DNA of 64,000 bases from contig JADJEE010000012.1 of NCBI GenBank assembly GCA_016709225.1, positions 1,987,630-2,051,629 on the forward strand, given 5' to 3'. The position numbers were made by a program, and so were the translations under genes. This DNA comes from Deltaproteobacteria bacterium. Its GTDB lineage: Bacteria; Myxococcota_A; Polyangia; Nannocystales; Nannocystaceae. A model generated the notes under the pieces. It saw nothing but the letters and a program-made list of their open reading frames with translations. It had not been told where the DNA came from and did not search any database. Positions 13,183-29,231 of this stretch are shown piece by piece; within the stretch, counting starts at the first letter, position 1; every line of letters begins with the position of its first letter.

Positions 13183-13193
13183 TGCGCGCCCGG

Positions 13194-15074
13194 TCAGAGC
13201 CGTACCTGCGACACCGGCTCGAGCCGCGGCGGATGACCGCGGCGCGCCGAGTGGACGCGGTAGCGACGGCGCAGGATCCAATCGCCCTGTAGGAAGTCGA
13301 TGTCGACCTCGGCTGGCGCGTCGATCGGCTCGGCGACGAGCTCCATGCGGAGTGCGTGTCCCGACAGCGGCGTCACGCCCAGGCTCTTGCGCTTGTCGGC
13401 GTCGACCAGCTCGAGCTCGCCGCGCCGGAGGATCAGCAGCGTCTCGCTGGGGTGGCGCGTGAAGACCAGGCCGATCGCCGCGCCGTTGCCATCGAACTTG
13501 CGCAGCAGCTTGGCGGACTCGCTGTGCACGAGCTGCACCTCGCTGCCGATGCCGAGCGCGAGGTATCCGGCCGCCGCGGCGACGCCGTGGATGGCCTGCG
13601 CGCCGACGCGCTGCTGCCACGGCACCTCGCGCAGCTCTCGATCCCAACGCGTCACGGTGCCGTCGGCCTGGCCGACCAGCAGGTCGCCCTCGCGTGCGCG
13701 CGACAGCGACGTGACCAACGCGGGGCTCGGCAGCGGGCGCATCACGGTCTCGGCGTCGGCATCGGCCCAGTAGCTGAGGCCGCGCGCGTCGGCGCGGTAC
13801 AGCGAGGTCCCGCTCTCGAGCACGAGCGCGCCCGGTGTCGCGAGCCCCTCGCGATAGCCCGCGCTGACGTCGGTGACGACCGGCACCGCGGCCGCCGAGC
13901 TCGCCGGCGCGGCGACCGGTTCGACGGCCTCGGCAGCGGACTTGGACCCCGCCTGCGACGACGCCCACGCGAACGCGCCCGCCGTCGCCACACACGAGAT
14001 CACCGACGCGACGATCCACGGCGTGGCACCACTGCGCCGCTGCACGACCGGCTCGATGGTGGTGACCTCGGCGGTGCGTTTGGGCTGGACCGACGTGCGC
14101 AGCGCGGCCCGCAGCGCGACCATGAGCGTGTGGGTGTCGCTGAAGCGGTCGCTCGGTGCCTTCGAGAGGCAGCGCTCCGCGACCGCTGCGACCGCGGGCG
14201 GCAGCTCGGGGCACAGCGTCGTCAACGGCGGCGGCGCGTCGTAGACGATCGCGTGCAGCAACGCCGGGGTCGACGGAGCGTCGAACGCCCGCCGCCCGCT
14301 CAGCAGCTCGTAGAGGATCGCACCGAGCGCGAACACGTCGGTGGTGGCGTCGACCGAGCTGGTGTTGCCGGAGGCCTGCTCGGGGCTCATGTAGTTCGGC
14401 GTGCCCATCACCACGTTGGTGCGGGTCATGGCCTCGGCAGCGCTCTTCATCTTGCTGATGCCGAAGTCGAGCAGCTTCACGCCCATGCGCATGCCGGCCT
14501 CGGCGGTCTGCGTGCGAATCATGATGTTGCTGGGCTTCAGGTCGCGATGCACGATGCCGGCCGCGTGCGCGGCCGCGAGCGCCGAGCACAGCGGATCGAA
14601 CAGCCGCAACACCTCGCGAGGCGTCGCGCGCCGCCCGTGCATCCAATCGTCGAGGGTCACGCCGTCGACGAACTCCATCACCATGTACGGGCTGCCGTCG
14701 ACGTCGGTGTTGAAGTCGAACACCTGCACGATCGCGTCGTGATCGAGGCTCGCGGCGATCTCGGCCTCTTGCCGAAAGCGGGCGTAGGCCTCGGCATCGC
14801 GGGCGAGGTGGTGCTCGAGGAACTTGATCGAGAAGCGCTGCTGCAGGCGTACGTGCACCGCCTCGTAGACGGTACCCATGCCGCCCGCGGCGATCGCTCG
14901 CGTGATGCGATAGGTGTCGGCGAGCAACGCACCGATGCGATTGTCGCCGGCCCGGCTTCCCGCCGCGCGCGCGGCCGCCATCCCCGGGTCGTCGGGCGGA
15001 CCGCCCAGGAACGCGGTGCGCTGGTCCGCAGACACGACCGCGAGGCTCGAACGACCCGACACGGATCCGGTCAT
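13194..15074 (-). CDS. Ser/Thr protein kinase with a C-terminal beta-propeller (WD40/PQQ-like) repeat region
   Basis: The kinase core reads GGMGTVYEA…AIVHRDLKPSNIM…DFGISK…GTPNYMSPEQ. The C-terminal part is repeat-rich. ATG at rc 15074 (MTGSVSG…). The rest of the 867-aa listed ORF is an R-rich artefact. Confidence 0.85.
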   Translation of the reverse strand: MTGSVSGRSSLAVVSADQRTAFLGGPPDDPGMAAARAAGSRAGDNRIGALLADTYRITRAIAAGGMGTVYEAVHVRLQQRFSIKFLEHHLARDAEAYARFRQEAEIAASLDHDAIVQVFDFNTDVDGSPYMVMEFVDGVTLDDWMHGRRATPREVLRLFDPLCSALAAAHAAGIVHRDLKPSNIMIRTQTAEAGMRMGVKLLDFGISKMKSAAEAMTRTNVVMGTPNYMSPEQASGNTSSVDATTDVFALGAILYELLSGRRAFDAPSTPALLHAIVYDAPPPLTTLCPELPPAVAAVAERCLSKAPSDRFSDTHTLMVALRAALRTSVQPKRTAEVTTIEPVVQRRSGATPWIVASVISCVATAGAFAWASSQAGSKSAAEAVEPVAAPASSAAAVPVVTDVSAGYREGLATPGALVLESGTSLYRADARGLSYWADADAETVMRPLPSPALVTSLSRAREGDLLVGQADGTVTRWDRELREVPWQQRVGAQAIHGVAAAAGYLALGIGSEVQLVHSESAKLLRKFDGNGAAIGLVFTRHPSETLLILRRGELELVDADKRKSLGVTPLSGHALRMELVAEPIDAPAEVDIDFLQGDWILRRRYRVHSARRGHPPRLEPVSQVRL

Positions 15075-15198
15075 CGGCGGCCATTCGGGCTGCTTGAGCG
15101 CGCCGCGGGCTTTGCGGCCGCGTGCCGGCAGGACGATGGTTCGCCTGCACGCACACATTCGACCGACTATCCTCGACCAGGTGCAGTCAGGTGACGAC

Positions 15199-16503
15199 GT
15201 GCGAACGAGCCTGTGGGTCGGCCCCGGCCCCGCGTGCGATCGCGTGCCGCGGATCCCGGGCAGCAAGAGCCTGACCAACCGCGCGCTGCTGCTGGCCGCG
15301 CTTGCGCGCGGTCGCTCGTCGATCAGCGGTTGGCTCGACGCCGACGACACGCGCCTGATGGTGGCCGCGCTGCGGGCGCTCGACGTGTCCATCACCGGTG
15401 GCGACGACCCTGGGCAACCCTTGCAGATCGACGGGCGCGGCGGGCCGTTGCGCTGCGACCACGCGCCGACGCTGCAGGTCGGCACCGCTGGCACGGTCGC
15501 GCGGTTCTTGCTGGCCGCGGTGGCCGCGAGCCCCGGCGTGTTCGTGCTCGACGGCAGCGCACGCATGCGCGAGCGACCGATGGGCGGACTCGTCGCAGCA
15601 CTACGCGATCGCGGCGCGGTGCTGACCGCCCTCGAGCGCGCCGACGCGCTGCCGCTGCGCAGCGGCCCGCATCCGGCCGCATTGCGCGGCGGCACCATCG
15701 TGCTCGAGCGACCCGCCAGCTCGCAGTTCGTCAGCGCGCTCGCGTTCGCGGGGCTGCTGGCCGACGCCCCGCTCGAGATCGTCCTGCGCGAGGGCACGCC
15801 CGCGCGGCCCTACGTCGACATGACGCTGGCGGTGATCCGCAGCTTCGGCGGCGAAGCGCGCTGGTCGGCCGCGGACCGCATCCTCGTCACCCCCACCGTG
15901 CTGACGGCGATGCCCTACCGCGTCGAGCCCGACGCGTCGGCGGCGACGTACTTTCTCGCGCAGGCGGCAATCTACGGCGGCAGCTGTCGCATCGACGCGC
16001 TCGGCCACGACAGCCTGCAGGGCGATGCGGCGTTCGTCCATGTGCTGGGGCGCATGGGTGCGCAGGTCGAGCAACGCGGTGATGTCACCGTGCTGCACGG
16101 CGGCGCGGCGCTGCAGGGCGGCACGTTCGCGCTCGACGACATGCCCGACACCGCGCTCACGCTCGCGGTCGTGGCCCTGTTCGCGCGCGGGCCCACGCAC
16201 ATCACGGGGGTCGGCGTGCTGCGCCACCACGAGAGCGATCGGCTGGCGGCGGCGGCCTGCGAGCTGCGCAAGCTCGGTGCCGCCGTCGAGGTCTTCGACG
16301 ATGGCCTACGCATCACACCGCCGAGCGCGCGCCCCGAGCAACCGGTCGCGATCGACACCTACGACGATCACCGCATGGCGATGGCGTTCAGCCTCGCGGG
16401 TGCCGTCGAGATCCGCGACCCCGCCTGCGTCGCCAAGACCTTCCCGGGCTACTTCGACGAGCTGGCCCGCCTGGGCGTGCCGGTGCAACGCACACCCGGA
16501 TAG
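15199..16503 (+). CDS. aroA: 3-phosphoshikimate 1-carboxyvinyltransferase (EPSP synthase)
   Basis: IPGSKSLTNRALLLAALA lies 18 residues from the proposed GTG start, as in E. coli AroA. LxxGxxxxD, RERPMGGL and the C-terminal DDHRMAMAF motif are present. The upstream ATG at 15136 would overlap the divergent kinase. Confidence 0.9.
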   Translation: MRTSLWVGPGPACDRVPRIPGSKSLTNRALLLAALARGRSSISGWLDADDTRLMVAALRALDVSITGGDDPGQPLQIDGRGGPLRCDHAPTLQVGTAGTVARFLLAAVAASPGVFVLDGSARMRERPMGGLVAALRDRGAVLTALERADALPLRSGPHPAALRGGTIVLERPASSQFVSALAFAGLLADAPLEIVLREGTPARPYVDMTLAVIRSFGGEARWSAADRILVTPTVLTAMPYRVEPDASAATYFLAQAAIYGGSCRIDALGHDSLQGDAAFVHVLGRMGAQVEQRGDVTVLHGGAALQGGTFALDDMPDTALTLAVVALFARGPTHITGVGVLRHHESDRLAAAACELRKLGAAVEVFDDGLRITPPSARPEQPVAIDTYDDHRMAMAFSLAGAVEIRDPACVAKTFPGYFDELARLGVPVQRTPG

Positions 16504-16640: not shown

Positions 16641-17975
16641 ATGAAGCCTGGCGACACGCTGACCGTCATGGCCGAGACGCTGTCGAAGCACGGCGACGGC
16701 GTGGCCCGACAGGGCGGCATCGAGATCCACGTCGCGGGTCTGCTGCCGGGTGAGACGGGCGACGTCGAGATCGACTACGTCAGCCGCCAGAAGCCGCGCG
16801 CCCACGCCCGCGTGGTGCTGCGACGCAACACCCATCCCGGTCGTCGTCCGGCACCGTGCCGCCACCACGGACGCTGCAACGGCTGTGGTCTGATGGACAT
16901 GGACCTGCCGAGCCAGCGCCAGCTCAAGCGCGTCGAGCTCGAGCGTACCTACGGCATCTTCATCGATCGCATGGTCGGCGAGACCCTCGACGGTCGCGGC
17001 TATCGCCACTCGAGCAAGCGCGTGTTCGCCGGCAGCCCCGGACACATCCGACTCGGCAGCTACATGCGGGGCACCCACAACGTCGCCGACATGGGCGGCT
17101 GCCTGGTCGATCATCCCGACATCGCGGCCTGTGCCGACGAGCTGGCGCAGGCCGCCGATGCCGTGCACGCCGTGCCCTACGACGAGACCGACGGCGAGGG
17201 CGACCTTCGCTACGCCTGGTTCAAGGCCGACGGTCGGGGCCGCGTGCTGCTCGCGATCATCACGGCCGAGCCGTGTCACACCGCGGTGCACGAGGTCGCC
17301 TCGCGGCTGACGATCCCGGTCGGCATCGCGTGGGGCGTCAACGCGCGCATGGGCAACGACATGCGCGGCACCACACTACGACCGCTGCGTGGCCGCCAGA
17401 GCATCGAGATCGAGTTCGCCGATCCGCTCCGCGACGAGGCCATCGTCAGCCATGTCGGCGCGTTGGGCTTCCTGCAGCCGAACCCGCAGGTCGCGTCGTT
17501 GGCCTACCACGACTTGGTGCGGGTGCCGGCCGGCGGCGCCCTGCACGGACGCACCGCGCTCGATCTCTACGCCGGCGCGGGCGTGACCACGCGCCTGCTG
17601 CGACGCCACTTCCAGATGGTCGCGCCGTGCGAGTCGTTCCCCGAGAGCGCGCGGGCGCTGGGCGCCGAGCCCGAGCTGGTCGAAGAGTTCCTGGCGCGCA
17701 TCCTCGCCGATCCACACCACCTGCATCGCCACCCCGAGCTGGTGGTCGCCAACCCGCCGCGCGGTGGGCTCGGCCCCACCGTCTGCGAGCAGCTCAACAC
17801 GCTGGCAGTTCCGCGCCTGCACATCATGAGCTGCTCGCCCGGATCCCTGGTCGAGGACCTCCGTCGCCTCACCGGGGAGCACGGCCGCTACAAGCTCATC
17901 GGTGCGCGAGCGTTCGACACCCTGCCCCAGACCAACCACATCGAGGTCGTGGTCTGGCTGGTCGGCCGAAGCTGA
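16641..17975 (+). CDS. 23S rRNA (uracil-C5)-methyltransferase of the RumA/RlmD family (TRAM domain, Fe-S Cys cluster, SAM methyltransferase)
   Basis: N-terminal TRAM-like domain, a Cys cluster (CRHHGRCNGCG), and a C-terminal SAM-methyltransferase fold (LDLYAGAGV…). ATG at 16641. Confidence 0.8.
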   Translation: MKPGDTLTVMAETLSKHGDGVARQGGIEIHVAGLLPGETGDVEIDYVSRQKPRAHARVVLRRNTHPGRRPAPCRHHGRCNGCGLMDMDLPSQRQLKRVELERTYGIFIDRMVGETLDGRGYRHSSKRVFAGSPGHIRLGSYMRGTHNVADMGGCLVDHPDIAACADELAQAADAVHAVPYDETDGEGDLRYAWFKADGRGRVLLAIITAEPCHTAVHEVASRLTIPVGIAWGVNARMGNDMRGTTLRPLRGRQSIEIEFADPLRDEAIVSHVGALGFLQPNPQVASLAYHDLVRVPAGGALHGRTALDLYAGAGVTTRLLRRHFQMVAPCESFPESARALGAEPELVEEFLARILADPHHLHRHPELVVANPPRGGLGPTVCEQLNTLAVPRLHIMSCSPGSLVEDLRRLTGEHGRYKLIGARAFDTLPQTNHIEVVVWLVGRS

Positions 17976-18099
17976 TCCAAGCGCTCGCCCGCGCCGCTTG
18001 GTGCCGCGCCGACCGACGGTTCCGCGGCCGACCCGAACGAGGGTGCTTGCCGCCGCCGGGCGATTGGGGCGACAATCGAACGCACAGAAGAGGTGCCCG

Positions 18100-18528
18100 A
18101 TGGCGAACCCGCAGAACTTCATCTCCGAGGACACCACCATCAAGGGCAGCATCACGACCGCGTCTTCGCTCACGGTCGCGGGCGCGGTCGAAGGCGACAT
18201 CAACGCCGGCGGTGACGTGACCATCCTCGCCGACGCGTCGGTCCGCGGCGACGTCTCCGGCCCCGCGGTCACGATCTCCGGCAAGGTCGAAGGCCGTGTG
18301 AACGCGTCCGGCCGCCTGCTCATCACCGCGCGCGGCTTCGTGCAGGGCGACATCGCGGTGCGCTCGCTCCACATCGAAGAGGGCGGGACCCTGCAGGGGC
18401 AGTGCAACATGGGCTCGGCGGCCCCTGCCGCGGCCAAGGCCGGCAACGGGCGCACGATCGCGCCGCCGTTGTCCTCGCTGACGCCTCCGCCCGCCTCGCC
18501 CGCGGCAGCGCGCCCGCCCGAGCGCTGA
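18100..18528 (+). CDS. Bactofilin (polymer-forming cytoskeletal protein)
   Basis: Repeating beta-helix pattern I.G…V.G.I.A.GDV.I…V.GDV. GAAGAGG ribosome-binding site before the ATG at 18100. Pro/Ala-rich C-terminal tail. Confidence 0.8.
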   Translation: MANPQNFISEDTTIKGSITTASSLTVAGAVEGDINAGGDVTILADASVRGDVSGPAVTISGKVEGRVNASGRLLITARGFVQGDIAVRSLHIEEGGTLQGQCNMGSAAPAAAKAGNGRTIAPPLSSLTPPPASPAAARPPER

Positions 18529-18649
18529 GATCGTCGTTCGTTCCCCGCCGACGCTGCGCGCGAGGCTGCGCACTCGGCCGCCGCGGGACCGCTTGCAACC
18601 CGGCGCGCGTGCGCCCGTCCAGACAACACAACCGGAGAGAACCACCACC

Positions 18650-19060
18650 ATGCCCCGCAATCGAATCCTGTTCCTGCTGCTGGCCCCCGTCCTCGCGCTC
18701 TCGGCGTGCAAGAAGGACTCGGCCGTCCAAGAGACCATCGACCTGCTGGACAAGCACAGCAAGGAGATCAAGGCGAAGGTCACCGACGCCACCGACAAGA
18801 AGGCGGGCGTGGCCGAGGCGCAGAAGTACATCGACGCCAACAAGGACGACATCGCCAAGCGCATCAAGGAGATGGGCGAGCTGAAGGGCTTCCAGGTCAG
18901 CGAGGAGATGCAGTCCAAGATGGCCTCGTCGCTGGTCGACGCCGCCTTCATGTGCAGCAAGATTCAGGTCGACCTGATGTCCGCCACGATGGAGGACAAG
19001 GACCTCGACGCCTCGCTCGAGAAGCTCTGCAAGACCTGGGACGACGCCGTCAAGATCTGA
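18650..19060 (+). CDS. Small lipoprotein, predicted helical, unknown function
   Basis: MPRNRILFLLLAPVLALSAC lipobox. ACCGGAGAGA ribosome-binding site before the ATG at 18650. Lys/Asp/Glu-rich mature protein. Confidence 0.6.
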   Translation: MPRNRILFLLLAPVLALSACKKDSAVQETIDLLDKHSKEIKAKVTDATDKKAGVAEAQKYIDANKDDIAKRIKEMGELKGFQVSEEMQSKMASSLVDAAFMCSKIQVDLMSATMEDKDLDASLEKLCKTWDDAVKI

Positions 19061-19117
19061 CGCTCGACGCACAAGGACGCGCACGCGACCTGAGCCTTTC
19101 TCCGGTCCCGAGAGGCC

Positions 19118-19146
19118 CGACGGCTAACCCCCGCCGGGCCTTCTGC
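19118..19146. terminator. Putative bidirectional hairpin between convergent genes
   Basis: AGGCCCG-(15-nt loop)-CGGGCCT stem followed by TCTGCGTTGGTTG. Confidence 0.35.
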
Positions 19147-19155
19147 GTTGGTTGC

Positions 19156-19338
19156 TCAGCGATAGCTCATGTGCAGATCGCAGCGCGTCGGCGTGAACGA
19201 GGCCACGCGCACGCGGACGTCCTTCTCGCCGCCGAGCTCGAGCGCGGCCTGCACGGCGGTCGCGTAGCAGCGCGCGATGAGCTCGGGCACGAGGTGCGGC
19301 GGATAGTCGATGACCCAGAAGTCACCGTTAGGGCGTCG
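19156..19338 (-). pseudogene. 3'-terminal gene remnant, about 60 aa, with no start. The reading frame opens directly after an in-frame TAG.
   Basis: The reverse-complement frame gives …NGDFWVIDYPPHLVPELIARCYATAVQAALELGGEKDVRVRVASFTPTRCDLHMSYR* with high third-position GC. The upstream side is cut by a stop codon and by the start of the lower-GC island. Confidence 0.35.
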
Positions 19339-19582
19339 CTACGCCCGCGAGGTGATGCCACGATGCATGCGCGCGAAGATGTCGCGCCCGCAGCTGCGAC
19401 CTTCCCTGCCGACAGTCGCAGGAGAGACCGTCGAAGGACCTTGCGGTCGCAGCGACGCAGCTCGACCGGTCGATCGCGCGGGGCACCGCCGAGTTCCGCG
19501 ACGCACTACGACATTCGGCCGCTGCGCTGCCCGCGGTCGTCGTGCTCGGCCTTAGCACGCTTGGCGGACACCCGAGAACAGA

Positions 19583-19723
19583 CTACGGACCACGGGCGAC
19601 AGCCCGCTTCATGACGCCGTCCAGCCCGTCCCACGTCACCCGCAGCAGGCGCGCAACGCCCGAGATGCCGGCCTCGTTCAGCCAGTCGATCACGAGGCCT
19701 CGAAGATCATGGATTTGCGGCTC
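19583..19723 (-). pseudogene. Possible IS630/Tc1-like transposase N-terminal HTH remnant
   Basis: …IHDLRGLVIDWLNEAGISGVARLLRVTWDGLDGVMKRAVARGP* follows the DLRxRV..EAGxSxxxAAxxFxVSxxxxxRWxxR..G pattern of IS630 transposase N-termini, but is truncated after about 45 aa. Confidence 0.3.
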
Positions 19724-20000
19724 CCCGGGAGAATTCGTGGGTCGATCGCAGCGTTGCGTGAGGCCGAGTTGTCGGTCCTGCCCCCGTCGTCCCCCTGCAC
19801 GGGACCCGAGCCGCGGGCCGATTGGCCAATCGTCAGACCACACGAGCGAGTACGATCTTTCCTCACGACTTACGGAAGAACCATCTACTCTCGACCTACG
19901 GCAGGCCGTTGTAGTCACCGTGTCCCCTCGCTCGGCCAAAAGGCCACTAGTCAGCAGCTTGCGCGTACGCTCGAATCGGAGCATTGAACGACCCAATTGA

Positions 20001-20030
20001 CTTGACGCAGTCCCAGAACCCCGCTAGATA
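20001..20030 (+). promoter_or_regulatory. Candidate sigma-70-like promoter upstream of the first Cys-rich secreted paralogue
   Basis: TTGACG, 17-bp spacer, TAGATA. Confidence 0.3.
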
Positions 20031-20072
20031 TGCACTACGCATGTGGCTCAGGCAGCAAGGACATCCCACGCA

Positions 20073-20561
20073 ATGCGCAAACCAACCCTGGGCGGCCATA
20101 TGAATCGCAGATCGTGTATAGCCATTCTGTTTGTTGCTGGGTCGGGACTAGGCCTTGCGCTTCACCCTACGACTTGGTCGTTTGCGATGGCTGAAACCCC
20201 GCGCAATTCGCCCGTCCCGGCCCCCTATTCGAAGAGCGGGGAAGCAGAGGTCTCGCGCGCAAGCGCAACTGACACGCTGAGCTCGTGCACATGGGAAACC
20301 TTCAGCAGCACAACATCGGCTCTCGTCAATGCGGCGTGTCCGATACCTGCCAAGCGCGTAATCTCCGGCGGCTGCATCAGTAGCGCCTCGGGGCGCAAAC
20401 TGATTTGGATGCACCCATACGAGGAGGCCGCAATTGGGTCGCTTCCACTGCCCGACAACGGAGAGTGGTGGCACGCAACCGACGGCAACACAGGCTGGTC
20501 GTGCAACTTCTCCTCGTCTGGGACTACGAATACCGCGCTGGCGCTTTGTTGCGGCACCTAG
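20073..20561 (+). CDS. Small secreted Cys-rich protein, paralogue 1 of 3 in tandem. I could not place it in any family I recognise. C-terminal LCCGT.
   Basis: Signal peptide MRKPTLGGHMNRRSCIAILFVAGSGLGLAL (alternative ATG at 20100). Three conserved blocks: SCTW…S..TS, CP….ISGGC, and W…NTGWSC.F … ALCCG. Lower GC than the backbone. Confidence 0.55.
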   Translation: MRKPTLGGHMNRRSCIAILFVAGSGLGLALHPTTWSFAMAETPRNSPVPAPYSKSGEAEVSRASATDTLSSCTWETFSSTTSALVNAACPIPAKRVISGGCISSASGRKLIWMHPYEEAAIGSLPLPDNGEWWHATDGNTGWSCNFSSSGTTNTALALCCGT

Positions 20562-20646
20562 TTGCAATCAGCGTAGTCAGCCACTACGGATCGCGTCTGC
20601 CAGAAGGCGCTGAAAGACGATCAGCACAGTGAACACACGGACAACA

Positions 20647-21210
20647 ATGAGTCTTGTAGCCGGCGCCGGGCTTGCGTTGTTTCTGCTAGTCGGAGCAGGA
20701 GTGGCGGGCGCTCAGGCCGAGATCACGAACTCTGCCGACAACTATTCACCCCGTCTCAATGACGGGACTGTTGGGGATGGCCGCGATGGCCGCAGCAGCA
20801 ACACGCCAGCGGCCAACACCGACGAACTTCGCAGCGATGCAGTCGCGGTGCTCGCAGACTCGACTGACCATCTAAACAGTTGCGGCTGGCGTACGACCAG
20901 CGCATCGTGTGACTGCATCACGAATGATTGCGGAGCACTTCCGAATCACTGTGGGTACACGGTTGCATGCCCGGTTGGAGAGGCGGCAATCTCCGGCGGC
21001 TGCCGAATTTCGGGCGACTCAAGCGTCGAACTTCTTTCAAGTCGTGTGTATTCAAACTCGTCACCACTTCAGCTACTATATGCGACTGTTTGGTGGGGAG
21101 TGAGCGCAAATACTGGCTGGAGCTGCGAATTTGACAACGTAGACACGATGCCTTCCGGTTGGCCGCCAGTGTTTCCTACGATTGAAGTCACGGCGCTTTG
21201 CTGTGGATAG
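20647..21210 (+). CDS. Small secreted Cys-rich protein, paralogue 2 of 3. C-terminal ALCCG.
   Basis: Signal peptide MSLVAGAGLALFLLVGAGVAGAQA, with a GTG 18 nt upstream as an alternative start. The same blocks are present: SCGW, CPVGEAAISGGC, NTGWSCEF, ALCCG*. Confidence 0.55.
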   Translation: MSLVAGAGLALFLLVGAGVAGAQAEITNSADNYSPRLNDGTVGDGRDGRSSNTPAANTDELRSDAVAVLADSTDHLNSCGWRTTSASCDCITNDCGALPNHCGYTVACPVGEAAISGGCRISGDSSVELLSSRVYSNSSPLQLLYATVWWGVSANTGWSCEFDNVDTMPSGWPPVFPTIEVTALCCG

Positions 21211-21248
21211 CACGTCCAAGGTCCTCATCGCGAATAGGCATATACGTC

Positions 21249-21731
21249 ATGGCACCAGTGCATCTTTCCAAAGGCCGGCCAGGTCGGGGACACCACTTTC
21301 AGCTTGTCTTGCTGTTCCTGTGCTCCGCAAGTTGCTCTTCGTTGGACCAAGGCGACGATAAGCCTATTCCGGCGACCCCGAACGATGACGACGGAGATAG
21401 CGAATCGGCCGACGACGATGAAGCCGTGGAACGGGCAGGGGCGTCCGATGAATTGGACACTTGCTGGTGGGTAGCATCACCGAATGGTGGCACGTCGGTC
21501 GGCACCGACTTTACGGTGAACTGCCCGGCGTCAAGACGGCCAATTGCAGGCCATTGCATGCACACCGGCTCCGCGCAGCTAACGGATTCACACCCGTTCG
21601 AAGCGAGCAATGCATCGAATCTCCCAGAAGCTGGGGAGTCCTGGTACTCGACTAGTAGCACGGCGGGATGGCGCTGCGCTTACGACGCTTCGGTGTCAGC
21701 ACAGATCGGCGTACTTTGTTGCGGATCATAG
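21249..21731 (+). CDS. Small secreted Cys-rich protein, paralogue 3 of 3. C-terminal VLCCGS.
   Basis: The listed start is a TTG that overlaps the stop of paralogue 2; the ATG at 21249 (MAPVHLSKGRPGRGHHFQLVLLFLCSASC…) gives a signal peptide. Blocks: TCWW, CPASRRPIAGHC, TAGWRCAY, VLCCGS*. Confidence 0.55.
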   Translation: MAPVHLSKGRPGRGHHFQLVLLFLCSASCSSLDQGDDKPIPATPNDDDGDSESADDDEAVERAGASDELDTCWWVASPNGGTSVGTDFTVNCPASRRPIAGHCMHTGSAQLTDSHPFEASNASNLPEAGESWYSTSSTAGWRCAYDASVSAQIGVLCCGS

Positions 21732-22203
21732 AAGGCTCGCTGTCCTGACTCTGGCGTTCGCAGGAACACATGATTTTGCGTTGGCGGGCGTCCGTGATAC
21801 GCTTGCCGTGACGCGCCGCGCGGGTGACTATGTGGCACGGGATCTCGTCCAGGCAGAGGTGCTCTGGATCGTCGGTGTGTTCGCGATCAGCGAACTGTGA
21901 TTGAGGCGGAGGTCGTCTCGTTCGTTCGCTCCCGGGTCGACTCCGCGGCTCCGCCATCGCGAACTCGCGGGTGTGCACGTTGGTGCGGTTGCCAGGTCGG
22001 GTCCACCTGGATCGACTTCGTGTGCTGATTCAGAGATTCGCGGGAGAAGCCGCTGCGCGCGCAATGCGCGAGCAGTGGTGCGCGATGGAGGCGAGGATGT
22101 CGTCGGCGCTCTTGGTCCAGGCGGACGGCTTCGGCTCGTCGTTGGTGCAGTGTCCGTGCGCCGGACCGCGTGCGTGGTTGAAGCAGCCGCGGGGCTTCCC
22201 GGT

Positions 22204-23810
22204 TCAGCCGCGCGCAGACTTCCAGCTCGCCGGCAGTAGATCTGCCGCGTCGGCCTCGCGGACGCGCCGCGAGAGCCGAGCGAGCACGTCGGTGAGGTAC
22301 GCGACCGGGTCGACGTCGGCGAGCATGCAGCAGCCGAGGATCGTGTACACCGCCGCAGCTCGGACGCCGCCGGCATCCGAGCCCGCGAAGAGGAAGTTCT
22401 TGCGGGTGAGTGCGACGCGGACATGCATGCGTTCCACGGCACCGTTGTCGAGCGGGATGTCTGGATCGTCGAGGAACCGGAGCAGCGCGTCTTGGTGGTT
22501 GAGCACGTATCGGATCCCACCGCCCATCGGTGACTTCGGCGGTTCGAAGGGTTGGTGCGTCTCGCACCAGCGGATCAGTTCGCCGCAGACTGCCGCGCTC
22601 TTCGTGGCGCGCTCGGCGTGCCGCGCTTCGCGATCGAGACCGCGGATCTCGTCTTCGATCTGGTACAGCACCTTGTACGCCGAGACCGGCAGCGAGGCGC
22701 GATCGTCTCCGGCCTCGAGCGCGGCGACGAACTTCCGACGTGCGTGCATGTTGCACCCGCACTCGATGATGTCGTCGCGCGCGAAGCTCTTGTCGAAGAG
22801 CGTCGCAGCGTCCGCGACCGTATAGCCCTTGCGCAGCCTCAACAGATCCTCGGGACCGATCTCGCCTTCGCGCTGCCCGACCTTCTTGCCGGTGCTCGCG
22901 TAGAAGTAGAACGCCGAGTCGTCGCCGACGCAGCCCCACAGCGAGCCGATTCGCTTGCCCGTGCCGACGCGCTTGTTGGTGCCATCGCGGTCGAGCACCG
23001 GCAGACCTGTGCCGTCGATATGCATGATCTTCGCCGCGAGCGTGCGCTCCTTCGCGGCGCGCACGAGCGGTGCCAGCAGCTCCGTCGCCCACGTCACCTG
23101 ATCGGCGAGCGTCGACACCGATAGCTCGACACCGAGACGCGCGAAGCGATCGCGCTGCCGATGCAGCGGCAGGCCATCGCGGTACTTCTCGACGAGCAGA
23201 TTGGCGACGAGCGCACAGCCCATCCGTCCGCCCTGGACCACCTTGTCGCCCAGCGGCGCGCGCACGACCTCGGCCTCGCAGTCGTCGCACGCCAGCTTCT
23301 CGCGGCTGTCGACGCGTATACGATCACCTCGGCCGGGATCAAGTCGAGGATCTCGGTCGTGTCGTGCCCGATGCACCGCCGCTCCTTGCCGCATCGCGGG
23401 CACGGCCGAGCAGCGGTCGGCACGACGATCGGGTTCGGAATCCGCCGCAAGTTCGCCGGCAGCGGGCGGCGAAGCGGCGGCTGAGGAGGCGCCGGCGTGC
23501 CTCCGCGCGCCGCAGGTGCGACCTCCTCGCTGGTCTCGCGCAGCTTCTGATCCGCTGCGTCGCGGGTCGCGTCGCCGGTGCTCGCGAGGCTCTCGAGCAG
23601 CAACGCGAGCTGAGCCGTCGACACGCCCTCGTTCGTGCGACGAGGTGAGCGAAGCTCGGCGAGCTTGCGTTCGAGCTCGCTGTTGCGGGCAACGAGCTTC
23701 GACACGAGCTCGAGCACCGTGTCGAGCTGGCCCTTGTCGAGCAGCTCGCGAAGCACCTCGAGCACGGGGGCGCGCTTCGTCGTCGTGCTTGCCGATCCCG
23801 TCTTGCTCAT
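22204..23810 (-). pseudogene. tnpC: IS66-family transposase TnpC, with the reading frame split by a single-nucleotide frameshift near 23335
   Basis: The N-terminal leucine zipper and zinc finger (…CPRCGKERRCIGHDTTEILDLIPAEVIV) are in one frame (ORF 23094..23948). The rest (…IRVDSREKLACDDCEAEVV…DGLPLHRQ…DDPDIPLDNGAVERMHVRVALTRKNFLFAG…) is in the -1 frame (ORF 22204..23850). The junction is gaggtgatcGtatacgc. Confidence 0.75.
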
Positions 23811-23898
23811 GCCGACGTCGACACCATAGCGGCGTCCGGCGCCGCGGCAACCGAAAATCATCGCACGCCCGCGTGTGGTTGCGCGCGGTCGCCCGGCA

Positions 23899-24267
23899 TC
23901 ACGCGCGTGCGTGCATCGGCGGCTCCCATCGACGTGACGCGCGAGCACGTGTGATGTCGATGCCCTCGAGTAGCATCGAGAGCTCGTGCACGTCGATCTC
24001 GACCGTCGACACCTCTTCGGCCACGCGCTGTGGAAACGTGAAAGTGCCCCGCTCGAGCCGCTTGTGCACGATCGTGAAGCCGCCGCGCGTGTACACCAGA
24101 AGCTTCACCTGGGTCTTGCGCCGGTTGAGGAAGACGAAGACGTGCCCGCTCAGCGGATCTTGCGCGAGCACGCTGCGAACGTCGGCACTCAGCCCGTCGA
24201 ACGATCGCCTCAAGCTCACCGGCGACGTCGCGACGTACACCTTCACTGCCCGCAGCAGCAGGATCAC
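23899..24267 (-). CDS. tnpB: IS66 Orf2 (TnpB)
   Basis: VILLLRAVKVYVATSPVSLRRSFDGLSADV…DPLSGHVFVFLNRRKTQVKLLVYTRGGFTIVHKRLERGTFTFP. GTG start that overlaps the TGA stop of tnpA (GTGA). Confidence 0.8.
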   Translation of the reverse strand: MILLLRAVKVYVATSPVSLRRSFDGLSADVRSVLAQDPLSGHVFVFLNRRKTQVKLLVYTRGGFTIVHKRLERGTFTFPQRVAEEVSTVEIDVHELSMLLEGIDITRARASRRWEPPMHARA

Positions 24268-24614
24268 GTCTTCGGCCTCAAGGTGATCATCTCCGAGACG
24301 AGTTGAGCGAGCCACTGTGCCGACACACGATCGGCGCGCACCTCGATCTCGACCTCGCCGACGTGCACCACGACCTCGGCCACCACCGCCGGCTCGGACG
24401 CCAGCATCGGGACGAACTTGACCGCGCCGCGCGTGCCCTCCGTCGCGACGCGCCGCTTCCACCACCGCAGCCTCCCGCTGCCGAGCTCATGCCGCCGCTC
24501 GAACTCCGCGAGCGTCAAACCACTGCGCTTCCACGCGCGAACTGCTGCGCGGCCATCGGCCGTCGTCCATCGCACCCCGCTCGCCGGCGCCGTCCACTCG
24601 CTCCCGCGTGACAT
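24264..24614 (-). CDS. tnpA: IS66 Orf1 (TnpA, HTH)
   Basis: …WKRSGLTLAEFERRHELGSGRLRWWKRR… pattern of IS66 Orf1. The ATG at rc 24614 lies inside the 73-bp duplicated segment. Confidence 0.7.
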   Translation of the reverse strand: MSRGSEWTAPASGVRWTTADGRAAVRAWKRSGLTLAEFERRHELGSGRLRWWKRRVATEGTRGAVKFVPMLASEPAVVAEVVVHVGEVEIEVRADRVSAQWLAQLVSEMITLRPKT

Positions 24615-24745
24615 GCCCGCGAGCGTGCACGATCACTGGGCGGCCACGCGGGTGCGCTCGGGCGGACGGACACCTCCCGCGTGACATGCCCGCGAGCGTG
24701 CACGATCACTGGCGGCCACGCGGGTGCGCTCGGGCGGACGGACAC
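24601..24745. repeat. Tandem direct duplication (73 + 72 bp) inside the IS66 right end. Each copy contains the tnpA ATG and ends with the IS terminus sequence ggcggacggacac.
   Basis: 24601-24673 and 24674-24745 are identical except for one G. The 13-mer ggcggacggacac therefore appears three times (24661, 24733 and the true terminus at 24799-24811). Confidence 0.85.
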
Positions 24746-24961
24746 GCGCGTGGCTGAACCGGGAAGCCCCGCGGCTGCGTCAACCACGCACGCGGTCCGG
24801 CGGACGGACACCCACGGTCGTCGAGCACGAGCGCGGTCGGTCGAGATGGTCGCGCTTCAGGGTTGTCGGTGGGCGGCCCAAAGCGGCGCGCGCCCAACGC
24901 GGCCGGCGTGCTATGAGCATGCTGGCTCGCGTGGGCGCGTCTCCGGGGTCAAGCGGCAGCG

Positions 24962-25372
24962 TCAGATTTGCTCGAGGCAGGAGGCCGGCGGAGAGAGTCT
25001 CTCGAACCCGAGCTCGCCACGTGCAGAGGTCAGCTCAGCCACGATGGTTGAGTGTGGGACTTGCGCCATGCGCCCTACCATAAAGCCACGGTAGTTACGC
25101 ACAGCTTCACGTGGGGTCAGTTGGCCGAGAGTGCCGGACGAGACCCACTCCGCCGTGAGGACGTCGATCGCGAGCGCGGTGGCCTCCGACTTCGGCGGCG
25201 CAGGCACGTACTGCGATCGGATCTCAGCCACGCGTCGGGCGTCGAGAGTGTAGGTGCCGACTCGAGCGACTGAGCAGTCCTCGCCCTCAGACGGACCGGG
25301 CGCCGGACCAGGAACCGGGCCTTTGCACGCCGGGCAGATCACGATCAGCAAGGTGAGGAAGTAGCGTTGCAT
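24962..25372 (-). CDS. Small secreted or lipoprotein (136 aa), tightly coupled downstream of the S8 protease. Possible cognate inhibitor or chaperone.
   Basis: MQRYFLTLLIVICPACKG signal peptide. AGGAGG sits 6 nt before the ATG, and the start is 10 nt after the protease stop. Lower GC. Confidence 0.6.
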   Translation of the reverse strand: MQRYFLTLLIVICPACKGPVPGPAPGPSEGEDCSVARVGTYTLDARRVAEIRSQYVPAPPKSEATALAIDVLTAEWVSSGTLGQLTPREAVRNYRGFMVGRMAQVPHSTIVAELTSARGELGFERLSPPASCLEQI

Positions 25373-25381
25373 GACATCCTC

Positions 25382-27868
25382 CTAATCACCGCCGCCATCA
25401 GGCTCATTGTCCACTTCAGACGTGGCCATGCAGAAGACATGAACAACCGCAGACCCCGAACTACTCACCCATTCTTTGTCGACGGTCACCTCGACGCACG
25501 TGTCCTCCACGTTGACCAGCGAGTCCTCGAACGCTACCATTTTCTTGTGATCGTGATCAGCGTTGATGCGCGTGTAGCTAGGAGTACCGTAGCCGACCGC
25601 GCAGGTGCCATTCCCCTGCTTCGGGCGCAGGCGCAGCTCGAGATCGATGCGACTGATGTTGTCCTTTCCGGACATGTCCTCGATCGCCATCATGACGCAC
25701 TTGACCTCTTCGGTGCCCGTTGCAACAGGGCCACCAAAGGCGATGTATTGCTGGTCTGCGGTACCACTGGTGAATGTGTAGGTGTTGTACGAGAGCGCAC
25801 CTCCCGCAAAGCTCGGCGAGCCGTTCGAAAGCAAGCGGAGCTTCGCTCGTCCGAGACCAAAGAGGTTGTCCGCACCCACGACGTTCTTCGTTCCCGAGCT
25901 GTTGCCCCGGTCACCCATGCCGAGCATCACCGTGTGCAAGCGTCCCACGTTCGAGATCCACGTTTGGCCATCGTTCAGACCCCAGTCCTTGACGAGAGCC
26001 GCCATCCCGGCAACAGCCGGCGCGGCAAAACTCGTACCGACCCACTGCCCGGTGCTCACGCAGCCGTTGGTGCCGGAGCCCGAGGTTACGTAGTTCACGT
26101 AGGCAGATGGCGCCGCGAGGTCTGCCATGGACAACGCCCCGCCCACCGTCGTTCCGTCCGGCGACTGGATAGACCCACCGCCGCGACTCGCGTAGGTGTC
26201 GTCGATATCCATGACCGAGTACAACGTGTCGTCCGTGCTGAGCCCGTTGACCGAGAAGGTCTTGGGAATGTCCGCAGGGCTGGACATGTTGCACGACGAT
26301 CCCGTCGTGCCGTTGTTCCCCGCCGATACCGCGATGAAGATGCCGTCGTCGAACGCGCCCTCGTAGGCGTCCTCGAGATCATAGCTCGAAGTCGCGTCAC
26401 AGGTGGCGTTCGGATACGAATCACCATCATTCCAGCCGTTGCTACTGCTGATGATGCTCGTGAGATAGCAACTACCCGGACCGGATGGCGTGAGCTCAAT
26501 GTCGATGCCCTGAAGGCAACTCGTTGACATCACGTGACGGCTCATCAGGGTGCTACCCTGGTGATCGAAGAACTGAACGACCGCCTCCTTTCCGTAGCCG
26601 CTCGCCGAGTTCTCCCACGAGGCACTGTGGTTCGTGGTGCTGTCGCAAACCGTCAAGCCTTGAGCCTGATCCTGGGTGTAGTCGCCGACAGCGATGGAGG
26701 ACACGACGGTGCCGTGGTTGACGTTCGAGGCCTCCGAGTAGTTGGCTTGTGAGTAGCTCTCACAGTACTCAACCCAACACTTCCACCGGCCAAGGAGCCG
26801 TTCAGTCTCGCATCCACTGTCGTCGTCAAAGAAGCACGCTTCGTCATTGAAGTGCCACTGCTCTTGGATGCCGATCGTGATTTGTCCCGCACCGTTTTCA
26901 GCGTTGAATCCGGCGTCGATGTACGTCTGAGCGTCAGTGTAGGAGCGCGAATCTCGATGGATTCCGATCGCGCGGCTGCCGTGCGACTGAAGACCAACGT
27001 CGTCGAGATCGATCTTCGTGATGTCTTCGCGCGCCTGCAGCTCCTCCAACAGGCCCTTCGAGACAGAAGCGCCTAGCCACCCCGTGGTCCAGTGATAGAC
27101 GCGGATCGTTCCGCCGCTTTCCACGATCTGTGCTGCCAATGACGACGACCGCTCCAAAAATGCTTCCTCTCGCTCGGCCAGCGCGACTTCGCGCTGTTCG
27201 ACCGCGGCAGCATACGTCTCTGCGCTCCACATCCCCACCTCAGGAAGTAGCGGAACATCCCAATCGGGGGCACCCCGCAACTTGATCAGCACGTCGAGGG
27301 AGTCATCCGGTCCAGCTTCCTCGGCCGCAGCGAGGAGGGTAGGACGCACCACGAGAGGCGCATCGTCGGATGGTTCCGCAGGCGGGTCGACGTTTGGAAC
27401 TCGAGTCACCCGATAGGTGTCGGTGCGCGTGCCTTCCGCGTCCACGACCGACGTTACCGTCTCTTCGTACAGGTACTCGTCCTGTAGGTGCGTATAGGGA
27501 CGCGAGACCTTCCGCCAGGTCTCAAGGTCCAGCTCACCGACCTCCGTTGACGAGACCATCTCGCCACTTTCGTTCTCTACGAGAACCTTCTCGTACACCA
27601 ACTCGCGTCCAGCATTAGCTGCGTCCGGATCTCGTACTTCGGTCTCGACATCGCCAGCACCGCCCGAGCTCCCTTCCTCAATCTCATCCGCGGGGAGGAC
27701 TTCCGAGCGTGGGCTATGCAGCCCTCCCTCGGCACTGTCGACGGGCGCTCGGTCATCGCAGGCGGGCGCGAGAGCCAATGTGGATAGAGCCCACATGCGA
27801 CGCAGGCACGTCCAGCGGTTCGCACGGGAATTGCCAATCGCAACAAGCTTCTTCGCCGAGGTTGACAT
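25382..27868 (-). CDS. Subtilisin-like serine protease (S8) with a long N-terminal pro-region, 829 aa
   Basis: His motif NVNHGTVVSSIAVG and Ser motif GTSFAAPAVAGMAALV. Signal peptide MSTSAKKLVAIGNSRANRWTCLRRMWALSTLALAPAC. GGAGA ribosome-binding site before the ATG at rc 27868. Lower GC than the backbone. Confidence 0.85.
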   Translation of the reverse strand: MSTSAKKLVAIGNSRANRWTCLRRMWALSTLALAPACDDRAPVDSAEGGLHSPRSEVLPADEIEEGSSGGAGDVETEVRDPDAANAGRELVYEKVLVENESGEMVSSTEVGELDLETWRKVSRPYTHLQDEYLYEETVTSVVDAEGTRTDTYRVTRVPNVDPPAEPSDDAPLVVRPTLLAAAEEAGPDDSLDVLIKLRGAPDWDVPLLPEVGMWSAETYAAAVEQREVALAEREEAFLERSSSLAAQIVESGGTIRVYHWTTGWLGASVSKGLLEELQAREDITKIDLDDVGLQSHGSRAIGIHRDSRSYTDAQTYIDAGFNAENGAGQITIGIQEQWHFNDEACFFDDDSGCETERLLGRWKCWVEYCESYSQANYSEASNVNHGTVVSSIAVGDYTQDQAQGLTVCDSTTNHSASWENSASGYGKEAVVQFFDHQGSTLMSRHVMSTSCLQGIDIELTPSGPGSCYLTSIISSSNGWNDGDSYPNATCDATSSYDLEDAYEGAFDDGIFIAVSAGNNGTTGSSCNMSSPADIPKTFSVNGLSTDDTLYSVMDIDDTYASRGGGSIQSPDGTTVGGALSMADLAAPSAYVNYVTSGSGTNGCVSTGQWVGTSFAAPAVAGMAALVKDWGLNDGQTWISNVGRLHTVMLGMGDRGNSSGTKNVVGADNLFGLGRAKLRLLSNGSPSFAGGALSYNTYTFTSGTADQQYIAFGGPVATGTEEVKCVMMAIEDMSGKDNISRIDLELRLRPKQGNGTCAVGYGTPSYTRINADHDHKKMVAFEDSLVNVEDTCVEVTVDKEWVSSSGSAVVHVFCMATSEVDNEPDGGGD

Positions 27869-28633
27869 GCACAATTCTCCAGACCGGTGTTTCGGTCGGT
27901 TCGTCGGTACAGATCGTTGCCACGCCGCGCACATGTCCGCGCGCGGTGGCCCAGATTGGCCAAAACTCTGCGGCCGAGCATACGGCCGATTGGGCAGATG
28001 TGTCAACCGATGATTTTGCGTCAGAAGTATGAGTTCTTTACTCGGCGTCTAGCCGGGTCTAGCCGGACAATTTGCGGCGTCGGCAATGCAACACGGTTGG
28101 CATCGTTGGGTGTCAAAGTGACGCTCTCCGGGAGAATAGTCGCGCGGTTTCCGTACGCTGCGCACCTTCGCCAGCGCTGAACCAAGGCGAGGTAAGGAAG
28201 AGACCAGCGTGATGCTTCAATAATTCGCCGGCGGCCGGGGAGCGAGCGCCACCGACCTTTCAGCTCCTGTGGCACGCTACGTCCGAAGTGGGATGGCAAC
28301 GTCGCAGACGTCGTGGACGACACCAGGCGGCTCACCGCGATCGCGATTGCCCCCCTCGTCTCTCGGCCGGTGCGCATTCACTGGTTGTGCAGCTCGGCAG
28401 GAAGTCAGTCAGAAGGAAGACAGCGAGCGCTCCGTGTAGAAGCTCACAAGTGGCCATTGGATCACTCGGCTTGGACCTCAACACCGGTTACCGGGGGCCT
28501 TGAGCTACTGCTCGTCTTGCCGTGGAGGCCGTTCCCCTGGGAGAGAGTTCGTGGGCGGTCGGGTAGATCGTCGAGTAGCGACATGAGGACCGAGGGCGCG
28601 CAGCCACCCGTGTCGATGTCGCGAATCTGTGAC

Positions 28634-28658: not shown

Positions 28659-28708
28659 TGCGCTTGGCATACCTGGACATGACGTGGCGGTGGTGGCATG
28701 CTCAGCGC

Positions 28709-29224: not shown

Positions 29225-29231
29225 GAGGCAT

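Follow-up and report, generated by a model that had tools for sequence, protein, structure and literature searches.

Three adjacent genes on a strain-specific island of a Nannocystaceae genome encode putatively exported cysteine-rich modules with a predicted resistin/PCSK9-module-like fold

The window, that is, the whole stretch of 64,000 nucleotides that was analysed, carries three consecutive small genes, here called A, B and C, which lie on the plus strand. The features of the locus are listed below by window position.

19061-31811, unstranded: strain-specific low-GC3 island of 12.75 kb that carries the triplet, delimited by DNA comparison and composition
20002-20030, plus strand: candidate sigma-70-like promoter (TTGACG-17 nt-TAGATA) upstream of gene A, read directly
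20073-20561, plus strand: gene A, 162 aa from ATG 20073, with alternative starts GTG 20043 and ATG 20100
20259-20558, plus strand: six-cysteine domain of gene A, predicted to be resistin/PCSK9-module-like, C-terminal end ALCCGT
20629-21210, plus strand: gene B, 193 aa from GTG 20629 or 187 aa from ATG 20647 (ORF list, alignment and P0003)
20854-21207, plus strand: domain of gene B with 10 cysteines, C-terminal end ALCCG
20908-20952, plus strand: four-cysteine insertion of gene B (CDCITNDCGALPNHC), between the first and second conserved module cysteines
21249-21731, plus strand: gene C, 160 aa from ATG 21249; the in-frame TTG 21198 overlaps the B stop
21435-21728, plus strand: six-cysteine domain of gene C, C-terminal end VLCCGS
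22150-24811, minus strand: IS66-family insertion sequence, 420 bp downstream of C (Pfam DDE_Tnp_IS66, 1e-57)
25382-28006, minus strand: subtilase (Peptidase_S8) of 874 aa in the same island (Pfam PF00082, 1.3e-10)

The three plus-strand ORFs from which an earlier sequence-only reading of this DNA had started (20043-20561, 20629-21210 and 21198-21731) are present, and the public gene calls place their starts at ATG 20073 (A), ATG 20647 (B) and ATG 21249 (C). The overlap of TTG 21198 with the stop of B is real as had been noticed, and ATG 21249 is the better start for C, because the putative lipobox cysteine then becomes residue 29. P0002 is a near-identical variant of gene C. The promoter that had been proposed upstream of A was found letter for letter, but a consensus promoter scan of 19000-22500 returned 0 sites; the scanner passed over TTGACG-17-TAGATA because its -10 hexamer lacks the final T.

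Signal peptides and lipoboxes were assigned by a heuristic reading of the N-termini. Gene A was read as encoding an SPase-I-like signal peptide (...WSFA/MAE, the slash marking the presumed cleavage site), followed by a short linker and then the domain, and a signal peptide of the same type (...GAQA/EITN) was read in B. The N-terminus of C resembles a lipoprotein signal (LLFLCSAS/C, with the Cys codon at 21333-21335, Cys29) and is followed by an acidic, Asp-rich linker; the serine at position -3 of this lipobox candidate is non-canonical. Lipobox equivalents were read likewise in L001_C (GLAN/C), P0005 (AIGA/C) and P0050 (VAVA/C).

The island that holds the triplet is missing from two related Nannocystaceae genomes. 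DNA homology to these MAGs (L017 and L019) extends up to window position 19060 and resumes at about 31812/31944, and just ~225 bp lie between the two island-flanking homology points in L017. The low-GC patch beside transposases that had been described from the letters was borne out, as the GC3 of A, B and C is 0.57-0.67 vs. ~0.9 in host genes and the IS66 element adjoins the triplet. This element has 66-nt terminal inverted repeats (22150-22215 and 24746-24811, 95% complementary) and carries orfA, TnpB and a transposase whose coding sequence is divided between two frames. On DNA comparison and composition, the A-B-C set evidently sits inside a horizontally acquired island. The ORF at 19583-19996 on the minus strand was at first read as an ISL3 transposase fragment and was dropped after Pfam gave no match.

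A, B and C have in common a C-terminal domain of ~95 residues with six cysteines, and their alignment holds 23 invariant columns, the six cysteines among them. All three conserved blocks of the sequence-only reading appear in the alignment, as does its [AV]LCCG at the C-terminus, except that the spacing given for the second block (CP-x4,5-I) does not fit paralogue 1, which has six residues from CP to I (CPIPAKRVISGGC). The similarity of the three proteins proved to be beyond chance, with paralogue BLASTP values of 7e-8 (A-C), 1.5e-4 (A-B) and 0.14 (B-C) when the search space was set to 1e9 residues. An exhaustive HMMER search of the domain profile against 1.84 billion representatives exposed a family of 114 clusters at E ≤ 1e-3, 42 of them at E ≤ 1e-10, while in word-indexed protein searches signal peptides took up most of the candidate lists, so that 5 and 4 proteins were returned. 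The paralogue BLASTP and the profile matches therefore settle the plus strand as coding, in agreement with the strand assumed before.

Scans of A, B and C against Pfam, NCBIfam, PHROGs and PADLOC gave no match, which upholds their description as small Cys-rich proteins with signal peptides and no curated family; a Trp_halogenase line in the curated-library scans (E 0.069) was taken as chance. Further, no Pfam family was found over the domain in any of 112 members scanned, two of which are fused to peptidase domains (Peptidase_M64 or reprolysin-like, each in a single member). The family was found in myxobacterial mobile islands and scattered in other phyla, at loci of 37-70% GC; a scan of a genome collection gave 0 confirmed matches, the wider family alignment containing no conserved segment that could be used, and a metagenome scan gave one locus, a duplicate of P0008. 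These comparisons indicate that A, B and C are real genes of a rare unannotated family.

All six cysteines, in the order C1...C2...C3...C4...C5C6, are present in 99 of the 161 aligned family domains. Their loss in relatives is nested, as either all six, or {C2,C3,C4,C5}, or {C2,C5} are retained, and C3 and C4 are missing together in module 2 of P0025 and in module 1 of P0061. This nesting is what a C1-C6, C2-C5 and C3-C4 pairing predicts, so the family domains probably carry these three disulfides. The alignments also showed that the four-cysteine insertion of B is kept in L001_B (CDCDISDCGDRPNDC) and in P0046 (CCDQPDCGDTPDYC), a third B-type protein.

A second organism (locus L001) has orthologues of A, B and C, and their order there is the same. 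Compared with their positional counterparts there, A is 60%, B 46% (L001_B/P0038, with the same insertions) and C 57% identical (L001_C/P0009, lipobox-like too), vs. 29-39% with their own neighbours. Because each window gene is closer to its counterpart in L001 than to its neighbours, the triplication appears to be old, and A-B-C is, by these identities, a fixed gene set and not a recent diversifying triplication. The earlier suggestion of a tandem triplication of diversifying effectors, toxins or bacteriocins was thus not sustained, given these identities, the recurrence of three modules, the acidic domains and the lack of immunity genes at the loci compared.

Exactly three modules were counted in 8 of the 10 loci with usable context. 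They are arranged as 1+1+1 in the window, L001, L009 and L010, and the P0006 contig was taken as 1+1+1 by its gene sizes (163+180+at least 127); a 1+2 arrangement, with the single module fused to two PPC (pre-peptidase C-terminal) domains, was found in L021 and L022, and a 3-in-1 arrangement in P0025. Three repeats were also found in 12 more distant proteins. The remaining two loci, L011 and L015/L016, have a single module, and therefore a homotrimer, or no trimer, is possible for some members. By the reading of N-termini, exactly one subunit per sequenced triplet is lipobox-like. No genes for immunity, maturation/processing or dedicated export were found in the window island, L001, L009 or L010. 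The coiled-coil and AAA proteins at L009 were considered as conserved downstream partners and rejected, as nothing alike recurs at other loci.

The AF2 model of A reached a pLDDT of 90-98 over residues 51-153 and has six strands. In Foldseek, this model gave weak matches (E 0.4-1.2), PCSK9 C-terminal chains among them, and the model of P0025, a natural three-module relative, gave PCSK9 as all of its best 12 PDB matches (E 1.5e-5 to 3.6e-3, probability 0.99-1.00), with the next match at E 0.15. The P0025 model has a pTM of 0.42, and its modules 2 and 3, at pLDDT 55-77, are of low confidence for packing. Moreover, the cysteine order C.W / C(P) / [SG]GC / W.C / CC is common to the family and to PCSK9 modules M1-M3, for which a PCSK9 sequence verified as exact against the PDB was used.

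Profile comparisons by hhalign were collinear and statistically weak, with P-values of just 0.0014-0.022 for the resistin and PCSK9 comparisons (mouse resistin, P 0.0014; RELM-beta, P 0.014; an alignment of PCSK9 M1-M3, P 0.0018 and collinear over 73 columns). Neither Resistin nor PCSK9_C1/C2/C3 was found in Pfam scans of A, B and C at E ≤ 10, and the PCSK9_C1/C2/C3 profiles matched none of the 112 relatives at E ≤ 0.01; the sole match of the family profile among PDB sequences, a nanobody at E 0.56, was of no relevance. The models and the shared cysteine framework therefore support an all-beta, three-disulfide resistin/PCSK9 C-terminal-module fold for A, B and C, the modelled domain showing both the resistin-type beta-sandwich head fold and the PCSK9 module fold, while the sequences themselves do not establish homology to resistin or PCSK9. 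Thus, the family that had gone unrecognised still belongs to no sequence family but can be placed structurally.

Resistin forms a homotrimeric head, to which the C-terminal domain of PCSK9 is structurally homologous (PMC6945527, citing Hampton et al. 2007). The explanation that we hold to be somewhat favoured is that A, B and C form an exported, membrane-tethered heterotrimer whose extracellular binding head is built like the trimer of resistin or the C-terminal domain of PCSK9, its assembly and function being deduced from the gene set and the models. All three proteins would be exported by Sec; A and B would be released by signal peptidase I, and C would be lipid-modified at Cys29 and tethered to the membrane via an acidic flexible linker of ~55 residues. 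Oxidative folding would form the C1-C6, C2-C5 and C3-C4 pairs, plus two extra pairs in the B insertion. The three proteins, one copy of each, might then pack round a pseudo-threefold axis into a heterotrimeric head laid out like the resistin homotrimer or three fused PCSK9 modules. This head may be a platform that binds a protein or glycan ligand outside the cytoplasm, and not an enzyme. The signal-peptide types, the formation of the heterotrimer and the binding role are all inferred. Among the roles suggested by the sequence-only reading, toxins and bacteriocins found no backing, and 'adhesin-like modules' come closest to this conclusion.

Other explanations were weighed against the heterotrimer. 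That the ORFs are chance frames, or that the opposite strand is coding, could appeal to overlapping minus-strand ORFs of 110-139 aa and to a GC3 atypical for the host, but is refuted by conservation and can be set aside with near certainty, since the plus-strand products have homologues in 114 clusters with six invariant or near-invariant cysteines, a confident AF2 model and orthologous triplets in other organisms. Independent secreted effectors, namely predation toxins or bacteriocin-like proteins that bind and permeabilise membranes in the manner of RELM-beta or resistin and owe their three copies to diversity, are also unlikely. Such a role would suit secreted, disulfide-rich proteins encoded on a mobile island of low GC in the Nannocystaceae, with a modelled fold like that of RELM-beta, whose C-terminal region binds negatively charged lipids and permeabilises bacterial membranes (PMC13647132). 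However, the domains are acidic (D+E vs. K+R of 7/4, 10/3 and 9/3), whereas RELM-type attack needs binding to negatively charged lipids, and cationic membrane attack was rejected as the main model because of this acidity. Further, A, B and C are conserved together and in order as orthologues, lineage-specific expansion was not seen, one subunit per triplet is apparently lipid-anchored to its producer, and immunity, maturation and dedicated export genes were not found at the loci, nor any match in PADLOC or PHROGs.

It is similarly improbable that the modules serve secreted proteases as accessory subunits for targeting or regulation, with the island S8 subtilase as the partner in a 'PCSK9 in pieces'. 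In PCSK9 itself, three modules of this kind are fused to an S8 protease, and a Peptidase_S8 gene lies in the same island; the PPC-fused module of L021/L022 neighbours a large trypsin-like/lysyl-endopeptidase-like protein and an M90 peptidase, and Peptidase_M64 or reprolysin-like domains occur in single family members. On the other hand, the S8 gene lies on the opposite strand, 3.6 kb off, with the IS66 element and another gene between, and its product has no family module in its sequence; no protease genes were recorded near the L009 and L010 triplets, P0031 or P0025, and peptidase fusion is limited to the two scanned members. As for the co-occurrence with S8 proteases or immunity-like genes that had been put forward as a check, no S8 gene lies near the L009 or L010 triplets, and immunity genes were not found at the loci examined. 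A functional link between the subtilase and the triplet is possible and not conserved. About as little weight, or slightly less, was given to the proposal that each protein forms its own resistin-like homotrimer or stays a monomer, the separate paralogues being kept together by the operon alone. Resistin and RELM proteins are homotrimers (PMC6945527), the single-module loci would fit, and the P0025 model, with its low pTM, gave no direct evidence of A-B-C contacts. Against it, three modules per locus recur across very divergent lineages as 1+1+1, 1+2 and 3-in-1, a pattern hard to explain unless three modules act together, and exactly one subunit of each triplet appears to bear an anchor.

A wider proposal can be made, which we regard as tentative and rather doubtful: bacteria may possess an ancient, unannotated family of resistin/PCSK9-CHRD-type modules that work as a trimer of three different proteins, of which two would be soluble and the third anchored by lipid. 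Vertebrate resistin, as a homotrimer, and the PCSK9 C-terminal domain, as three fused modules, would be eukaryotic versions of this layout, and the bacterial complex would represent a new type of extracellular receptor or ligand head. A bacterial family with the same predicted fold and cysteine framework would give evolutionary context to the medically important resistin and PCSK9 modules. The family occurs in three-gene, 1+2 and three-fused layouts, and since the modules of the window are separate, each subunit could be expressed alone for the study of assembly and binding. For microbiology, the proposed complex would be a new disulfide-rich secreted/lipoprotein assembly of marine or soil myxobacteria, encoded on mobile islands. 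The immediate value of the finding is a well-defined, testable structural hypothesis.

Three known or related systems were compared with the triplet. The three-repeat bacterial proteins from the same profile search (for example P0097, P0073, P0082 and P0063; P0098, P0094, P0095 and P0104) have three tandem modules per chain, a secretion signal and the core motif CP.G..V.GGG[C] ... W.C ... A.C in common with it. They are distant (E 1e-4 to 1e-6 to the profile), belong to no Pfam family, retain two or one of the three disulfides and differ in being single-chain fusions that lack the C-terminal LCCG.

Resistin and RELM-alpha, -beta and -gamma (PDB 1RFX, 1RGX, 1RH7), a family described as mammalian for RELM (PMC13647132), are likewise small secreted proteins with many disulfides and a head of beta-sandwich fold, and have the motifs 'CP.G..V..C' and C-terminal 'A.CC' in common with the bacterial family. 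The resistin head has 10 cysteines (five disulfides), an N-terminal coiled-coil helix and an inter-trimer cysteine, whereas the bacterial proteins carry six cysteines (in B ten, arranged differently) and a putatively disordered acidic linker; no helix was predicted in residues 1-58 of A, nor any resistin-like coiled-coil. Trimeric head assembly is a property of resistin/RELM and is proposed for the bacterial proteins, and resistin is a one-gene homotrimer whereas the bacterial set has three distinct genes. RELM proteins bind negatively charged lipids (PMC13647132), while the bacterial modules are acidic.

For the PCSK9 CHRD (V domain; M1-M3 in PDB 2P4E, 2QTW, 4K8R and 7ANQ), the host is a vertebrate and the three modules form one chain on an S8 catalytic domain, whereas the bacterial modules are three separate polypeptides with their own export signals, stand-alone and unattached to any S8 (proteinase-K-type) catalytic domain. 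PCSK9 lacks two features of the bacterial modules, the conserved W..GW.C motif and the acidic loop NLPEDGE.W, and these modules are not His-rich, unlike the CHRD; as the PCSK9_C1-3 Pfam profiles do not match A, B or C, membership in that sequence family is not detectable. Nevertheless, both are built of all-beta units (predicted for the bacterial ones) of ~75-95 residues, the six cysteines of a unit follow one common order (C..W / C / [SG]C / C / CC), and in both the modules come in threes.

Public gene calls on identical sequences started at ATG 20073, ATG 20647 and ATG 21249 for paralogues A, B and C, and the ORF listing gave 20043-20561, 20629-21210 and 21198-21731, in agreement with the sequence-only reading of three consecutive plus-strand genes. 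Their alignment held 23 invariant columns and contained all of the proposed blocks ([ST]C.W, CP...I[SA]G[GH]C, W[WY]....[NT][TA]GW[SR]C.[FY] and, closing each protein, [AV]LCCG), except that the CP-to-I spacing, given as four or five residues, is six in paralogue 1. BLASTP among the three, with the search space fixed at 1e9 residues, returned E-values of 7e-8, 1.5e-4 and 0.14. GC3 was 0.57-0.67 in A, B and C vs. about 0.9 in the surrounding host genes, bearing out the proposed low-GC patch. The suggested sigma-70-like promoter, TTGACG-17-TAGATA, could be read at 20002-20030, but a consensus scan of 19000-22500 called no promoter.

Scans of Pfam, NCBIfam, PHROGs and PADLOC returned no match for A, B or C, as expected from the claim that they belong to no assignable family. 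An exhaustive HMMER search with the profile of the C-terminal six-Cys domain against 1.84 billion cluster representatives matched 114 proteins at E<=1e-3, of which 42 at E<=1e-10, and no Pfam family covered the domain in the 112 relatives scanned. The six Cys, one Gly and the Trp of GW.C were invariant in an alignment of the 50 best relatives. Because the profile search recovered a homologous family with conserved cysteines, the plus strand is the coding one, and the reality of the domain family is hardly in doubt. Most relatives are small proteins (120-240 aa) in which a signal peptide and an acidic low-complexity linker precede the C-terminal domain; a simple heuristic finds a lipobox-like signal in 41 of 92, usually with Asp after it. 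Loci with family members span 37% to 70% GC, and the family is therefore rare yet widely scattered over the phylogeny.

The AlphaFold2 model of A, built on a 50-sequence alignment, was six-stranded and all-beta, with pLDDT of 90-98 over residues 51-153 and an unstructured N-terminal 50 residues. The model of P0025, a natural relative with three modules in one chain, had low overall confidence (pTM 0.42); nevertheless, PCSK9 accounted for each of its top 12 Foldseek matches in the PDB (E 1.5e-5 to 3.6e-3, probability 0.99-1.00), with the first match after these at E 0.15. The sequences used for comparison, the C-terminal part of PCSK9 and mouse resistin, agreed exactly with the PDB. The six-Cys order of the bacterial domain, with 'A.CC' at its end, recurs in each PCSK9 module, and resistin shares 'CP.G..V..C' and 'A.CC'. 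Profile-sequence alignments to both were collinear but weak (P 0.0014-0.022), and the kinship is therefore established in predicted fold and cysteine framework rather than as sequence homology. A resistin/PCSK9-type fold is very probable for the A, B and C domains. In PCSK9 modules the disulfides are C1-C6, C2-C5 and C3-C4. Cysteine loss in the relatives is nested, with all six, {C2-C5} or {C2,C5} retained, and P0025 module 2 and P0061 module 1 each lack both C3 and C4, a pattern that fits this pairing.

The triplet had been taken for a tandem triplication. That it is a recent one is contradicted by the comparison with L001, a 2.3-kb metagenomic contig carrying three genes in the same order: the domains of A, B and C were 60%, 46% and 57% identical to those of L001 genes 1, 2 and 3, respectively, whereas paralogues within a locus shared only 29-39%. 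The four-Cys insertion and C-terminal loop of B are kept in the L001 B protein and in P0046, a third B-type protein. Three adjoining single-module genes were also found in the much more distant loci L009 and L010, one gene of each being frameshifted in the assembly, and in another contig the A-type protein P0006 (163 aa) is followed by genes for 180 and at least 127 aa. In L021 and L022, gene 1 fuses one module to a pair of PPC domains and gene 2 has two modules. P0025 has its three modules in one chain, and 12 more distant proteins carry three tandem repeats. A lone module was seen only in L011 and L015/L016. Thus, exactly three modules occur in eight of the ten loci with usable context, across three gene architectures, which is read as the classic signature of parts working together. 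Further, as assigned by reading the N-termini, each sequenced triplet has exactly one lipobox-like subunit (window C, L001 C, L009 gene 1 and L010 gene 3). On these sequence comparisons, A-B-C is a conserved set of three and not a recent triplication; the triplet first noticed is real, and more structured than was thought.

The PPC-fused and two-module genes lie at L021 1555-3614 and L022 2945-4922 in low-GC organisms (46% and 37% GC), beside a >1689-aa trypsin-like/lysyl-endopeptidase-like protein with a CBM in L021 and beside an M90 peptidase in L022. The L009 triplet is preceded by MbnB/TglH-family and YHS-domain genes and followed, at 11870-15270, by a 575-aa coiled-coil-rich exported protein and a 551-aa AAA_16/AAA_22 membrane protein, none of which recurs in the other loci. 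A large group of distant relatives (P0098, P0094, P0095, P0104, P0100, P0106 and P0076), without a Pfam family, are of about 300 aa and again have three copies, as repeats of CP.G..A.GGG ... DDGW ... YA.C that keep only one of the three disulfides.

The triplet lies among the following features.

Features of the island and its left flank
17902-18528, plus strand: bactofilin (Pfam 2.1e-24), host gene left of the island
18593-19060, plus strand: 155-aa lipoprotein, host gene immediately left of the island, 81-82% identity in L017 and L019
19061-31811: island of low GC3, a mosaic of IS elements and secreted-protein genes, missing from two related Nannocystaceae MAGs (L017, L019)
22150-24811, minus strand: IS66-family element whose 66-nt terminal inverted repeats are 95% complementary; orfA, TnpB and transposase
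24962-25372, minus strand: 136-aa lipoprotein-like ORF, preceding the S8 gene
25382-28006, minus strand: 874-aa Peptidase_S8 subtilase (Pfam 1.3e-10)
28745-29224 and 29235-29666, plus strand: two tandem Cys-rich paralogues with N-terminal hydrophobic segments
29731-31165, minus strand: IS3-type transposase (rve and rve_3 domains) at the right island edge, with an overlapping ORF upstream

In L017 and L019 the next gene after the lipoprotein gene is orthologous to window gene 31734-34118, with about 225 bp between the homologous blocks in L017; since the flanks are adjacent there, 19061-31811 is a strain-specific island of 12.75 kb. Nannocystaceae and Myxococcales MAGs, L017 and L019 among them, carry relatives of the flanking rRNA methyltransferase at 73-87% identity. 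The IS66 element confirms that transposases lie near the triplet. The IS66 transposase frame is split (23094-23948 and 22204-23850), which is either a frameshift or a pseudogene, and short repeats GCGCTCGGGCGGACGGACAC lie at 24654-24673 and 24726-24745, just inside the right-hand terminal repeat. Neither the N-terminal ~400 and C-terminal ~200 residues of the S8 protein nor either of the Cys-rich paralogues matched Pfam; the latter share EDCE...C.W...CVGI.G.QQGCGL..C...LY.R...E.F.SP.CGPEPVG.W.AC...ECSC.C and are unrelated to the A/B/C family. Six contigs (L003-L008) from public runs ERR14790674/5/7, SRR11235435, SRR17089434 and SRR21875704 were 99.98-100% identical to window 18615-24630, indicating that the same strain was sequenced repeatedly, and no IS66-free variant was seen among them.

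The A, B and C modules have no catalytic motif, their eukaryotic counterparts of the resistin/PCSK9 type are protein-binding heads, and modules in relatives are fused to PPC domains, collagen repeats and peptidases; for these reasons a binding rather than an enzymatic role is tentatively proposed. A membrane attack like that of RELM-beta (PMC13647132) is less likely because all three domains are acidic. A partnership with the S8 protease of the same island would parallel PCSK9 and is attractive, given that the protease gene and a PCSK9-module-like triplet are found together, but the pairing is not conserved in the other loci. In the picture judged most likely, A, B and C would all be exported by Sec, signal peptidase I would cleave A and B while C is lipidated, and each module would fold oxidatively. 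The three modules would then join 1:1:1 into a pseudo-threefold head, tethered to a membrane by the acidic linker of C; that A:B:C form such a heterotrimer is about an even chance.

The fold itself is known already, but no description of bacterial members was found in the literature, and in reviews the RELMs figure as a mammalian family (PMC13647132). The proposed head would resemble both the resistin homotrimer and its structural homologue, the C-terminal domain of PCSK9 (PMC6945527, citing Hampton et al. 2007), and the stand-alone three-gene organisation, with one putatively anchored subunit, is new on this resistin/PCSK9-module theme.
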